DNA of 64,000 nucleotides from Candidatus Bathyarchaeia archaeon (lineage in GTDB: Archaea; Thermoproteota; Bathyarchaeia; Bathyarchaeales; Bathycorpusculaceae), in assembly GCA_050015395.1 (NCBI GenBank), contig JBEKBM010000006.1, positions 32,001 through 96,000 of the forward strand. Reading direction: 5' to 3'. The translations under genes were made by a program, and so were the position numbers. The first letter of the stretch is position 1. Each line of letters opens with the position of its first letter. Positions 35,231 through 41,814 of the stretch are shown here, piece by piece. The notes beneath the pieces were generated by a model. It saw only the letters and a program-made list of their open reading frames with translations, was not told the origin of the DNA and did not search any database.

Positions 35231-35320
35231 TTATTTCTCCTTTAAAAGTTTAACTTTGAAGCCTTCCTGTTCCAAAATTTTAATTAAACGATTAGAATTT
35301 ATCGGCGAAATCTTAGGCAA
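35231..35320 (-). pseudogene. hicA: Truncated HicA toxin (N-terminal 29 aa only)
   Basis: TTG overlapping the hicB end: MPKISPINSNRLIKILEQEGFKVKLLKEK*, stopping before the catalytic GSH motif. Confidence 0.75.
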
Positions 35321-35537
35321 GAGCTTTCACTTTTTGTATGCCAACGACTTTTTCTTTTAGCAGATCTTTCTTCTCTTGCGCAGTTAAGGTTTCCCAGTAA
35401 AGATCTATAGCTTCTTTCGCGTTTTCCATAACTTCCGCCAATATGTCTCCCTGCGTATGGCATCCTGGCAAAGCAGGCACTATAGCGACATAGCCGCCTG
35501 TTTCGTCTTCTAGAAGTACTACATCGAAATCTCGCAT
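35313..35537 (-). CDS. hicB: HicB-family antitoxin
   Basis: FDVVLLEDETGGYVAIVPALPGCHTQGD..EVMENAKEAIDLY. Confidence 0.92.
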   Translation of the reverse strand: MRDFDVVLLEDETGGYVAIVPALPGCHTQGDILAEVMENAKEAIDLYWETLTAQEKKDLLKEKVVGIQKVKALA

Positions 35538-37015: not shown

Positions 37016-37097
37016 TATTTAAGGCATGATATATAGAACTATAGCCAACGACCCATTGCTTGTTTTATTAACTCACTAATTGGGAGAGATAACTAAA

Positions 37098-37253
37098 ATG
37101 AAATTGATCACTCTGTATCTGCCTGAAACGTATATAAAAGCTTTGGACCAGTTGGTAGACGAGAGATTCTATCCTAACCGTGCCGAAGCCATCAGGGTCG
37201 CAATTCGAGACTTAATCAGTGCTGAGGTATGGAGGCGTAAGGGCGTTGACTAA
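37098..37253 (+). CDS. Ribbon-helix-helix regulator, CdrS/aCcr1-like (51 aa)
   Basis: Manual translation, not in ORF track: MKLITLYLPETYIKALDQLVDERFYPNRAEAIRVAIRDLISAEVWRRKGVD. Confidence 0.88.
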   Translation: MKLITLYLPETYIKALDQLVDERFYPNRAEAIRVAIRDLISAEVWRRKGVD

Positions 37254-37533
37254 GCATTTACATGACGAAGCACTAAAGCCACTGGGCATTGATGATGCGA
37301 AGGTTGAGGTTGCTCCAAAAATCATTGACAACTCAATGGTAATTGGCGGTCCACACATAGTCCGTAAACCAAAAAACAAAATGAACGTCAGGATGGTTAA
37401 AAATAAAGTGCCCCTTAAAAGAACAAGCAGACTGGAGAAAGCTACACAGTGCCTCTATGACTTAGAAGAAGCCCATGAACCTGAAAAACCCTTAAACATC
37501 GACCTCGGCCTCTACCAAATGGAAGATTACTAA
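37246..37533 (+). CDS. 95-aa protein resembling only the C-terminus of archaeal FtsZ
   Basis: TTG overlapping the RHH stop, GGAGG SD at 37231; DNSMVIGGPHI...MNVRMV and tail LYDLEEAHEPEKPLNIDLGLYQMEDY. Confidence 0.6.
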   Translation: MTKHLHDEALKPLGIDDAKVEVAPKIIDNSMVIGGPHIVRKPKNKMNVRMVKNKVPLKRTSRLEKATQCLYDLEEAHEPEKPLNIDLGLYQMEDY

Positions 37534-37622
37534 CCATCAATTCCTTCCTTGTTTTTGCCCTCAACTTTTATGTAAACAATATTTAGAAAAAGCTATTATT
37601 CATAAAAAACCGCTTTATCGGC

Positions 37623-39666: not shown

Positions 39667-40197
39667 CTACTGCATGCTAACCAGATTTTTTACCTCAGTT
39701 TTTGAAATTGGGCCAATTCTGTACAGAATCTCAGGTTCATGACCGTCGTTTTCGAAGTCTTCTTCGTTAAACAACACATTTTCTTCGCATTTGGTGTTTA
39801 GTAATTGAGCTAATTCACAGAAATTTCTTTTAGATGCTTCATTTGAAGGGTTTACGGTGCCTTCAAAATATTTTGCGCCTGTTATGCTGATTTGATGAAG
39901 AAGCATGCGTTTTTGCAAGCCGTTTCCCCGGTAATCTTTGTGAACCACTACTTCCCAGTTGAAAAAGGTGTCTGGCCTGTCTGGTGGTACATATCCTGAA
40001 GAAAAAGCGATTATTTTGTTATTCTGTTCGGTAACGACGCAGGTATCTGAGAAATCTTTAGCCAAAAGAAAATAGGTATATCGAGAATTTAACCCTACGT
40101 AAGGTCTATTCGCTACAAGCAGTTTGTACACTTCTTTTATGTCCGACAACACTATGTTTCTGATTCTAAATTTCAAGTATTCTTTAATTCTCTGCAT
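39667..40197 (-). CDS. GNAT acetyltransferase, EctA (diaminobutyrate acetyltransferase)-like
   Basis: [58 protein letters not shown] are EctA signatures. Confidence 0.85.
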
Positions 40198-41545
40198 TCA
40201 GAATGCACGTTCCTTTGCTTTTTTCTCTTCGTTTCATTCGAAGGTTTCCTTTTGGTATGAGCGATATTTCATCGTCGTCGGTTAACAATTTTTCAACGCC
40301 TACCGCTGTTTGCTCCTCTTCCTCTAATTTTAGCTGCAAACCGCATTTGTTACAGTTCCTGTCACATGGAATTGATTTGTAGTCGTCAGGTTCTTTGTAT
40401 GTGGTGATGACGCCTTCATAGTTTCTTAAGACCACTTTATTAGTGGACCATGAGACAATGTAGTTTGGCATAAGGGGAATTTTTCCTCCACCTCCAGGAG
40501 CATCTATAACGTATTTTGGTACTGCAAGCCCGCTTGTGTGCCCTACTAGGCTTTCCATGATTTCGATGCCTTTTCCGATGGGTGTTCGAAAATGAGTTAG
40601 CCCTTCTGATAGGTCGCATTGGAACAAGTAATATGGTCGCACTCTATTTTGTACAAGCTTTTGATTGAGCTTTTTCATAATTTGCGGGCAATCGTTTACA
40701 CCTGCCAGTAGCACGGATTGGTTTCCTAATGGTATTCCCGCATCTGCTAACTTTCTGAGAGCTTCTCGAGAAGATAGTGTAAGTTCTCTTGGATGATTGA
40801 AATGAGTGTTCAACCACAAGGGATGATGTTTTTTAAGCATTTGCACTAGCTCGTCAGTTATTCTATAGGGAAGAACAACAGGTATTCTTGAGCCAATGCG
40901 CACCACTTCGATATGTGGAATGCTGTTTAGCTCTGTTAGAATCCAATCTAGATAATCATCCGGCAACATGAGAGGGTCTCCTCCCGAAAGCAGCACATCG
41001 CGTATCTGAGGATTGTTTTCTATGTAGCGAATTCCTTGGATTATTTGGTGCTTTGAAGGGATGTGGTCAGGGTCGCCAACCTTTCTTTTCCGCGTACAGT
41101 GTCTACAGTACATTGCGCAACGGTTACTAACCAGAAAAAGTACTCTGTCAGGGTATCGATGGGTAATTCCCTTGGTTGGGCTGTCTTTGTCTTCATGTAG
41201 GGGGTCTTTCATGTCGTATTTTGAGATTTTTAGTTCAGCTGGATTAGGAAACGCTTGCTTAAATATGGGGTCATTACGGTAATTTTCTTTTTTTATTAAT
41301 GATGCATAATATGGCGTTATGCTGAGTGGAAATTTGCTAATTGTATTTTCGAGTTCTTCATGTTCTTCTTCTGTGAATGTAATACCTGTAAACTTTTCAA
41401 AAGCAGCAACAGTTTTTATCGAATTATTCAGTTGCCATTTATAGTCTTTCCACTTAGTAACAGTAATATTTGCTTCAGCATTTTTAGCGGCGTATTCTTG
41501 ATAGCTGATGATGTTTTCAGTTTTTTCAACAACCAATTGTTTCAT
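40184..41545 (-). CDS. ablA: Lysine 2,3-aminomutase (likely ATG start at 41545)
   Basis: [47 protein letters not shown]-terminal CDRNCNKC. Confidence 0.95.
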
Positions 41546-41814
41546 CTCCGCCAAGCGCTTTCTTACCATTTTCAATAAACATTTTAAGATTTTATAGCTT
41601 TTTGACAACTGAAATTCGCCAAAAAGTCAAATCCGCTTAAGGACAACGAACAAACTGCACTTCGCAAATAAGTCAAGTTCTCTTAACAAAGCCACATACA
41701 TCCCGAAAAAACCGTCAGCATTTAGCAAGATTATTCTTGTTTAGCTTTGTCAGGTTTTTTCTTCTATTATTTATCGTTAGATTATTATTTAAGGTGAAGA
41801 ATGCTATTGGCGGT

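Follow-up and report, generated by a model that had tools for sequence, protein, structure and literature searches.

A 95-residue remnant of FtsZ, overlapped by a CdrS-like regulator gene, keeps the C-terminal tail and evolves under purifying selection in Bathyarchaeia

INTRODUCTION

Can the tail of the division protein FtsZ be kept by a cell as a gene of its own, after the GTPase has been lost? This question is raised by a locus within a 64,000-nt stretch of DNA, which is here called the window, from a Candidatus Bathyarchaeia archaeon (GenBank assembly GCA_050015395.1, contig JBEKBM010000006.1, positions 32,001 to 96,000 of the forward strand). The source genome is 2.59 Mb long, in 42 contigs, and its completeness is 98.9%. 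At this locus the gene of a CdrS-like ribbon–helix–helix (RHH) regulator overlaps a 95-amino-acid (aa) open reading frame (ORF), the product of which is named "hypothetical protein" in public sources, and which is called here mini-FtsZ, or the stub. An initial annotation, made from the DNA letters alone, had proposed that this ORF is FtsZ reduced to its tail, either as a relic or as an adaptor for partners such as SepF. The data described below showed that the ORF is the positional ortholog of ftsZ, from which the GTPase domain and half of the C-terminal domain have been deleted, and that it is under purifying selection. Taken jointly, the ftsZ origin of the stub and the selection on it are, in our judgment, close to certain.

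Bathyarchaeia are among the most abundant archaea of soil and sediment habitats, and both of the prokaryotic division systems occur in them. According to Kohtz et al. (2022; PMC9723716), they encode CdvABC as well as homologs of FtsZ and FtsZ-like proteins of a non-canonical type, while a cdrS–ftsZ gene pair was described across archaeal clades in a study in which Bathyarchaeota genomes were inspected (Darnell et al. 2020; PMC7439475).

RESULTS

The ORF that follows the RHH gene descends from ftsZ

When 60 relatives were searched, the stub was found as an open frame of ~100–110 aa in 35 of the 36 same-genus genomes, whereas the matches in five further families of the order were to open frames 373–399 aa long, and were confined to the C-terminal end of these frames. 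The long frames of the other families carry the GGGTGTG motif, and they match Pfam Tubulin (163 bits) and FtsZ_C, as well as TIGR00065 (394 bits). An ortholog of the RHH gene immediately precedes and overlaps the full-length ftsZ, the product of which has 370–380 aa, in each of the loci from the other families (9/9), and full-length ftsZ also follows the RHH gene in five loci within the window's own family. The same divergent MiaB-like neighbor that is present in the window stands beside the RHH gene and full-length ftsZ in relatives. The expectation of the initial annotation that an RHH gene of this kind would have ftsZ as its downstream gene in related archaea was therefore borne out.

The relationship was also evident in alignments. 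In a BLASTP comparison, residues 5–95 of the ORF aligned with residues 276–370 of a relative's FtsZ, up to the last residue of that FtsZ (E = 6e-13), and the alignment took in its ...DDAMVIWGARV... and EPEKPLNIDLGLYQ segments. A profile made of 35 of the 36 genus sequences, with one near-duplicate (L011, of L010) left out, was matched by hhalign to nine full-length FtsZ sequences with a probability of 99.1% (E = 1.5e-18). Hence, the echoes of FtsZ motifs, which had been pointed out in the initial annotation, reflect real homology. A spurious alignment looks excluded, and so does a full-length ftsZ with this tail elsewhere in the source genome. In a joint MAFFT alignment, the first three residues of the ORF fell on the FtsZ start, and residues ~9–95 fell on FtsZ residues 280–372, while the full-length FtsZ of a sister genus starts (MLTK...) one codon upstream, within the same overlap. 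Because the alignments of the start and of the C-terminal part are colinear with full-length FtsZ, approximately residues 4–279 of FtsZ must have been deleted in frame. Residues 9–58 of the stub are colinear with the ...MTIEEANRVGEIVTEMMD..ALVIWGARVNP....LKVTLVMTG region of full-length FtsZ, which we take to comprise the elements named H10, S9, and S10 in the FtsZ structure literature.

The stub fails the tests that define the FtsZ family, and yet it descends from FtsZ. Sequence and translation confirmed the presence of a 51-aa RHH gene, which overlaps an intact 95-aa ORF preceded by the Shine–Dalgarno (SD) sequence GGAGG, and no GGGTG(S/T)G motif was found in the 95-aa product. A Pfam scan of this product gave no Tubulin match at E ≤ 1 and no FtsZ_C (PF12327) match, and no NCBIfam family was matched either; the weak Pfam matches to SIN1 RBD (E = 0.032) and DUF1948 (E = 0.17) were dismissed as chance. 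In a PDB sequence search with the stub alignment, similarity was seen only at chance level, to mitoribosomal mL40 (E = 0.24), with FtsZ chains missing among the matches, and the ESM Atlas contained no usable neighbor for the stub sequence. Only the second half of FtsZ_C is left in the stub, in a diverged form, which hhalign still detected against the ortholog FtsZ. When compared to archaeal FtsZ (TIGR00065; PF00091 and PF12327), the stub has the same locus and the same start site, and its last helix and strands and its C-terminal domain are colinear. The conserved peptide that ends FtsZ behind a linker is present in it as well, and has its counterpart in the full-length orthologs of the order. 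On the other hand, it is without the GTPase domain, the T7 loop, and the first half of FtsZ_C, and its globular remnant has become rich in lysine and arginine. Because the parts of FtsZ responsible for these activities in known FtsZ biology are gone, the stub would be unable to bind GTP or to polymerize. The earlier description of the product as tail-only holds as far as the tail is kept and the GTPase domain is gone, but it is too narrow, since the start region and the diverged last helix and two strands also remain.

The stub is conserved and its tail is the most constrained part

Every locus of the genus (36/36) contains the RHH gene and the overlap, together with an ORF that is free of interruptions and starts with TTG in 34 of the loci and with ATG in two. 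Among 80 further loci, 78 are intact and have the overlap, one is cut at a contig end, and one is frameshifted. The ratio of nonsynonymous to synonymous substitution rates (dN/dS, ω), estimated pairwise by the Nei–Gojobori method (NG86), had a median of 0.22 and a range of 0.08–0.67 among the 94 of 630 pairs that were usable (0.05 < dS < 1.2). The pairwise medians were 0.28 for residues 4–60 and 0.14 for residues 61–95. With the GY+F3X4 codon model, applied to the 36 genus sequences after removal of the three overlap codons, ω was 0.157 (lnL −6582.3), while a model with ω = 1 on the same tree had an lnL of −6994.4, which is worse by 412 units. Neutral evolution is rejected because of these dN/dS values of 0.16–0.22. 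Together with the intact loci, they also dispose of the relic, which was one of the two alternatives offered in the initial annotation.

Within the genus alignment the residues L89, Y90, Q91, M92, and E93 are invariant, the residues L83, N84, D86, Y71, L73, and E74 show a conservation of 90% or more, and at position 85 Ile predominates, being present in ~80% of rows. The segment of residues 40–62 has a median net charge of +9 (from +3 to +11 in 35 genus sequences), compared to +2 in the equivalent segment of FtsZ. The substitution data show that the stub is under purifying selection, which is strongest on the tail.

Constraint was also seen at the level of codons. The arginine codon that completes the GGAGG sequence is AGG in 57 of the 58 distinct junction sequences, whereas the other arginine codons of the RHH gene are AGG in only 18 of 290 cases. 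This retention of AGG is a constraint on synonymous change, and it is compatible with a ribosome-binding site that is in use. We infer from these sequence features that mini-FtsZ is translated from its own SD sequence and TTG codon, and that its translation is coupled to that of the RHH gene. An alternative GTG start at position 37219 was rejected, as it is missing in several loci of the genus, while the TTG or ATG codon within the overlap is present in 36/36.

An exhaustive profile search among 1.84 billion cluster representatives gave 129 proteins at E ≤ 1e-3. Since 121 of these 129 matches are not longer than 135 aa, the stub constitutes a diverse family of small proteins. The match P0097 (459 aa, with five matching stretches) is a TPR-like repeat protein with a compositional match to the tail profile, and it was discarded as spurious.

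FtsZ has been reduced repeatedly within the order

Of 251 genomes drawn from the family, which belong to 70 genera, 222 gave a match, and the frames were either ~100–120 aa or 371–383 aa long, depending on the genus. Among 20 loci taken from other genera, 17 contain a stub with the same architecture and the same junction, and 16 of these show the RHH gene upstream; as to the remaining three, one is part of a full-length gene cut off at a contig edge, and the other two were unmatched by the rule used. The same deletion junction is present in 11 genera, including the genus of the window. Because the junction is common to these genera, one old deletion is the explanation that we adopt, a probable single origin that is based on the shared junction. 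Across the genera, at least 11 in number, the identity between stub copies has fallen to 40% or less.

Other, independent reductions of FtsZ were found elsewhere. In another family, two species have a conserved 70-aa frame after the RHH gene, which ends in a related tail. In one genome of a third family, the RHH gene is followed by a frame of at most 94 aa, in which only the tail is recognizable; this genome has no tubulin match. In two database proteins, of 175 and 151 aa, FtsZ has lost different internal parts, and FtsZ_C is the only Pfam domain left in them. There are also full-length FtsZ proteins encoded after the RHH gene (L179, L026, L194, and P0101), which are GTP-dead, and in which the C-terminal half and the tail are well kept. 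In these proteins FDSKTAI, GDETGTE, or GDEAGTE stands in place of GGGTGTG, and one of them is without any Pfam Tubulin match. They were found in the window's family and in one other family, and judging from their motifs they are putative pseudo-GTPase intermediates. Altogether, the order shows a graded series, of several origins, which consists of intact FtsZ, GTP-dead full-length FtsZ, forms with internal deletions, and stubs of 60–95 aa. The tail is the part that persists in every reduced form of FtsZ seen. Thus, the reduction of FtsZ proposed in the initial annotation is real, but it is not peculiar to the source genome; it is old, is found in at least 11 genera, and has parallels elsewhere in the order.

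The 80 related loci, which come from species-representative genomes, belong nearly all to metagenome-assembled genomes of Candidatus Bathyarchaeota/Bathyarchaeia, and two of them to Candidatus Bathycorpusculum. A few stub records are labeled as Acidoferrum, Methanocella, Nitrososphaerota, or Crenarchaeota, and these are probably bin or label errors.

SepF and Cdv genes are present in a genome without an FtsZ GTPase

In the source genome there was no match to FtsZ_C and no FtsZ GTPase was found. Its sole tubulin-superfamily match is a weak one, to an 896-aa protein, the N-terminal 200 residues of which match Pfam Tubulin_2 (E = 8e-16). The gene of this protein is located outside the window (contig C3, ~125261–127950) and is kept in most genomes of the genus; in several genomes a second weak tubulin-like gene (~390–500 aa) is located ~3 kb from it on the opposite strand. 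Strong tubulin matches (E ≤ 1e-10) are absent in all genomes of three stub-bearing genera (26/26, 7/7, and 2/2), and they are present in 9 of the 38 genomes of the window's genus. The latter matches correspond to a second FtsZ paralog (~370 aa; Tubulin and FtsZ_C; TIGR00065 314 bits), an identity that was read in three genus genomes and assigned to the remaining strong matches by their similar score. This paralog has a basic C terminus, has no NID..LYQME tail, and has no RHH gene upstream. It is not in the source genome, and in other genera it is scattered among genomes, whether or not these have the stub. Where paralog and stub occur together, the GTPase and the tail are in separate genes.

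The source genome encodes a 162-aa SepF (contig C37), which is composed of an amphipathic, membrane-targeting N terminus, a Pro/Glu-rich linker, and the core. SepF was found in 232 of the 251 family genomes (129 of the 133 high-quality ones), in 36 of the 38 genomes of the window's genus, and in 23 of the 26 genomes of a stub-bearing genus without any tubulin match. The core has 31 invariant columns in common with SepF of FtsZ-bearing lineages. Within the genus its ω is 0.078 (30 of 120 pairs usable), while that of the linker is ~0.36. The linker of the genus SepF is longer and rich in Pro, Glu, Ala, and Gln, with proteins of ~150–230 aa versus frames of ~110–140 aa in FtsZ-bearing relatives. 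A PDB search with the SepF alignment matched the P. furiosus and A. fulgidus SepF-like structures, and it did not match the M. smithii complex. In several stub-bearing genomes sepF is located 3–19 kb from the RHH–stub pair on the same contig, and in the source genome they are on different contigs.

The data also showed that the source genome contains two CdvA, four Snf7, and one Vps4_C match, as well as five PRC-barrel matches. A Cdv cluster on contig C2 (40313–43724), outside the window, is composed of Snf7, CdvA, Snf7, and a 398-aa frame with Vps4_C. The second CdvA-domain gene (contig C3, 136888–137211) belongs to a frame of 230 aa in this genome and of 430–1345 aa in other genomes of the genus. 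This inventory, with SepF and Cdv components and with no FtsZ GTPase, is in line with the suggestion in the initial annotation of a lineage in which the division system is shifting.

The RHH protein resembles CdrS and is nearly invariant

The product of the upstream gene was assigned to the RHH fold by its match to Pfam RHH_1 (31.6 bits versus a cutoff of 20.5; E = 1.5e-7). Its best NCBIfam match is CdrS (NF058555), a model named for haloarchaea, with a score of 42.7 bits, which is below the equivalog cutoff of 100. The model for aCcr1 (NF053762) gave only 13.1 bits versus a cutoff of 60, and therefore the RHH protein is not a member of aCcr1. The protein is nearly invariant across the 36/36 loci of the genus, and its ATG (MKLITLYLPE...) is at the start position common to relatives.

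The view of this protein as a CdrS-type regulator is based on synteny and on the gene pairs described by Darnell et al. (2020; PMC7439475), and by this analogy the nearly invariant RHH protein probably still acts as a regulator of division. Similarly to the cdrS–ftsZ2 operon of Halobacteria and other archaea (PMC7439475), a small RHH gene is placed here directly upstream of an ftsZ-derived gene in the same orientation. This locus is different from that operon in that the RHH protein scores below the CdrS cutoff, the downstream gene is a 95-aa stub, and there is no cdrL. The aCcr1 protein of Sulfolobales (PMC9976878) is likewise a small RHH protein tied to division in archaea that use Cdv, while the protein studied here fails the NCBIfam cutoff for aCcr1. 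As regards a reading of the locus as a pair of an RHH antitoxin and a toxin, no Pfam or NCBIfam toxin family was matched by the downstream gene.

Features of the locus and neighboring genes

The features of the locus are collected in Table 1. A scan for bacterial-type promoters and terminators gave 0 sites, and this type of scan is uninformative for an archaeon. The neighboring genes are housekeeping genes, which encode a MiaB-like radical-SAM enzyme, located divergently upstream, and a DNA-alkylation-repair protein, located downstream. Between cysS and the gene of the MiaB-like enzyme there is a gene for a 74-aa protein with a HicB-like antitoxin domain (E = 8e-10; window positions 35313–35537, minus strand). 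Further away, a gene for lysine 2,3-aminomutase (Pfam domains LAM_C and Radical_SAM) overlaps a gene for a GNAT acetyltransferase (window positions 39667–41608, minus strand). By its domains this would correspond to the ablA/ablB pair, which in methanogens serves the synthesis of the osmolyte N-epsilon-acetyl-beta-lysine.

Table 1. Positions of the RHH and mini-FtsZ genes and of their sequence features in the window
Feature	Position	Strand	Description
Putative SD sequence GGGAGAG	37082..37088	+	9 nt 5′ of the RHH ATG; read from the sequence, predicted
CdrS-like RHH regulator gene, 51 aa	37098..37253	+	ATG 37098, TAA 37251–37253; Pfam RHH_1
Putative SD sequence GGAGG for mini-FtsZ	37231..37235	+	Within the RHH coding sequence, codons Trp-Arg, 10 nt 5′ of TTG
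Overlap TTGACTAA, 8 nt	37246..37253	+	mini-FtsZ start TTG and RHH stop TAA; predicted translational coupling
mini-FtsZ gene, 95 aa and stop	37246..37533	+	TTG 37246, TAA 37531–37533; ftsZ remnant
Residues 9–58, diverged rest of the FtsZ C-terminal domain (its final helix and final two strands)	37270..37419	+	Colinear alignment
Residues 40–62, derived Lys/Arg-rich segment	37363..37431	+	Charge comparison
Residues 63–95, conserved FtsZ C-terminal domain, presumed partner-docking tail	37432..37530	+	RLEKAT..LYDLE......EK.LNIDLGLYQMEDY
T5 run, possible archaeal oligo-T terminator	37552..37556	+	19 nt 3′ of the stop; predicted from the sequence

DISCUSSION

A proposed role of the stub as a SepF ligand

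We propose, with moderate confidence, that the stub is a functional small protein derived from FtsZ, which serves as a non-polymerizing ligand or adaptor of SepF. This is proposed because archaeal FtsZ tails bind SepF, and because SepF stays constrained in the absence of a tail-bearing FtsZ GTPase. The C-terminal domain of archaeal FtsZ sits in a groove of SepF through a motif that is centered on Ile-Asp and contains a near-invariant G-I-D (Pende 2021; PMC8178401). The stub is partly similar, in that its tail has a conserved D86, preceded by I85 as the majority residue. By this analogy, the chance that SepF in particular is the partner of the stub seems slightly better than even.

The likely course of events is as follows. 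In the ancestor of a large clade within one Bathyarchaeia family, the ftsZ gene located after the RHH gene lost approximately codons 4–279 in frame, while the start codon in the RHH overlap, the helix–strand–strand remnant, and the C-terminal domain survived the deletion. The tail of the stub would dock in the peptide groove of SepF, like the C-terminal domains of archaeal FtsZ, and the stub would act as a soluble, non-polymerizing ligand of SepF. It could then regulate the self-assembly of SepF on the membrane, or alternatively it could tether SepF to another partner via the new basic middle segment. Cytokinesis itself would be performed by the Cdv/ESCRT-III machinery.

Several observations weigh against this proposal or against parts of it. 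The tail of the stub has N-I-D at the position of G-I-D in archaeal FtsZ, with Gly replaced by Asn. For the acidic residues that are ion-paired in the M. smithii complex, no clear equivalent is seen in the stub, and the flanking residues differ from those of the M. smithii peptide (PMC8178401). SepF was not found, also when a profile was used, in four stub-bearing genomes that are 93–96% complete, and in a fifth it is split into two frames; the rate at which SepF is missing is about that expected from genome incompleteness. In one 95%-complete genome of the order SepF is present, while neither FtsZ, nor the tail, nor an ortholog of the RHH gene was detected, and therefore SepF is not strictly dependent on the tail. 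The basic segment is not universal among the genera (e.g., g90), and the middle of the stub evolves fast. As to the integrity of the frame, the frameshifted locus L117 (record CAWJXC010000001.1) has two compensating frameshifts around residues ~22–40, which could be either an assembly error or real decay. Three of the longer database matches that were inspected (P0019, P0021, and P0045) are stubs in which the frame breaks ahead of the tail, and these out-of-frame copies may be sequencing errors or may reflect real decay. Finally, a hint of expression is given by one soil-metatranscriptome contig of a relative (432 nt, 90–95% identical), which spans both genes (37118–37533), but it comes from a single run at low depth, with possible DNA in the library, and it shows bridging, and not the level, strand, or ends of a transcript.

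Other explanations of the conserved ORF

The stub could also be functional with its tail docked elsewhere, which we regard as unlikely. In such a case the tail would bind a PRC-barrel protein (CdvA or CdpB-like), an ESCRT-III subunit, the second FtsZ paralog, or the Tubulin_2 protein, and it would link to the Cdv machinery or regulate it directly. Candidates are available in the source genome, namely the five PRC-barrel, two CdvA, and four Snf7 matches and the Tubulin_2 protein conserved in the genus, and PRC-barrel proteins are part of the archaeal FtsZ/SepF divisome (10.1101/2023.03.28.534520). SepF is, however, the one partner that is documented for the C-terminal domains of archaeal FtsZ (Pende 2021; PMC8178401), and its core is strongly constrained in lineages without FtsZ. 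Docking at another protein would be consistent with the four fairly complete stub-bearing genomes in which SepF was not found, and with the departure of the stub tail from the GID consensus. As regards the individual candidates, the second FtsZ paralog is not the general partner, because it is present in only 9/38 genomes of the window's genus and in 0/26 genomes of another stub-bearing genus.

A co-factor role of the stub, which would form with the RHH protein a complex modulating DNA binding, as in small RHH–partner modules, with the likeness of the tail to FtsZ being only historical, is improbable. The tight translational coupling and the invariant 8-nt overlap would be explained in this way, but the same overlap exists with full-length ftsZ, and therefore the coupling is an ancestral trait, of which the stub is not the cause. 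The RHH protein is extremely conserved, and the basic middle segment of the stub could contact DNA; the strongest constraint is, however, not on this basic segment but on the acidic tail common with FtsZ, and the stub has no match to a toxin or partner family.

We give very little weight to the explanation that the frame is kept for a reason in cis, such as ribosome traffic stabilizing or tuning the RHH mRNA, with the peptide being irrelevant. The conserved SD sequence and start codon do overlap the RHH gene, but a role of this kind would not hold ω at 0.14–0.28 along 95 codons, would not keep LYQME invariant, and would not account for the retention of one and the same tail by independent lineages. 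The last alternative, in which the ORF is a decaying, functionless relic of ftsZ, could appeal to the loss of the GTPase domain, the failure of Pfam to recognize the remnant, and the few frameshifted copies, but it is rejected by the selection tests (the ω = 1 model being worse by 412 log-likelihood units), and intact loci (36/36 and 78/80), persistence of the stub in at least 11 genera with copies at 40% identity or less, and the synonymous constraint on its SD sequence leave it next to no probability.

Comparison with other reduced or demoted FtsZ proteins

In literature searches on the division proteins of Bathyarchaeia and on truncated FtsZ in archaea, no description of a tail-only FtsZ was found. 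The truncated FtsZ paralogs of Hyphomicrobiales are reportedly without C-terminal parts. They were found as duplications of the FtsZ GTPase (Aubry et al. 2026; PMC13732431), and because of this they are opposite in kind to the stub, in which, as in a mirror image, the GTPase is deleted and the tail is kept. What they have in common with the stub is that they are shortened derivatives of FtsZ, which have been maintained for a long time and are thought to tune division. The Hyphomicrobiales forms are, however, extra paralogs present beside an essential FtsZ (PMC13732431), while here the stub replaces the ortholog. A further parallel is provided by Nitrosopumilus maritimus (PMC3684127), which belongs to the TACK archaea (Thaumarchaeota, Aigarchaeota, Crenarchaeota, and Korarchaeota) and has Cdv proteins together with a non-polymerizing FtsZ that was seemingly demoted from division. 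The FtsZ of that archaeon is still full length, whereas in the case described here the enzyme is deleted and SepF is retained.

Implications for division in Bathyarchaeia

The selection on the stub suggests that the FtsZ tail is of use by itself. The GTPase of FtsZ is dispensable in a large clade, where it has been lost, while the tail, the CdrS-like regulator, and SepF are kept under selection. Docking and filament formation, as two functions of FtsZ, come apart in the stub, and this predicts a role of SepF that is independent of FtsZ. There is also a practical consequence, as inventories of FtsZ that rely on the Tubulin domain call such genomes FtsZ-free and miss the remnant.

A broader interpretation, which is tentative and which we hold to be rather doubtful at present, is that SepF and a free FtsZ tail form a GTPase-independent membrane module, which is wired into ESCRT-III (Cdv) cytokinesis. 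The C-terminal peptide of FtsZ would then be a signaling or adaptor unit, and the graded series of reduced forms would be a record of the handover from FtsZ to ESCRT in TACK archaea, in which the FtsZ–SepF interface was kept. The order offers natural intermediates for the replacement of FtsZ by ESCRT toward Crenarchaeota and, more distantly, eukaryotes.

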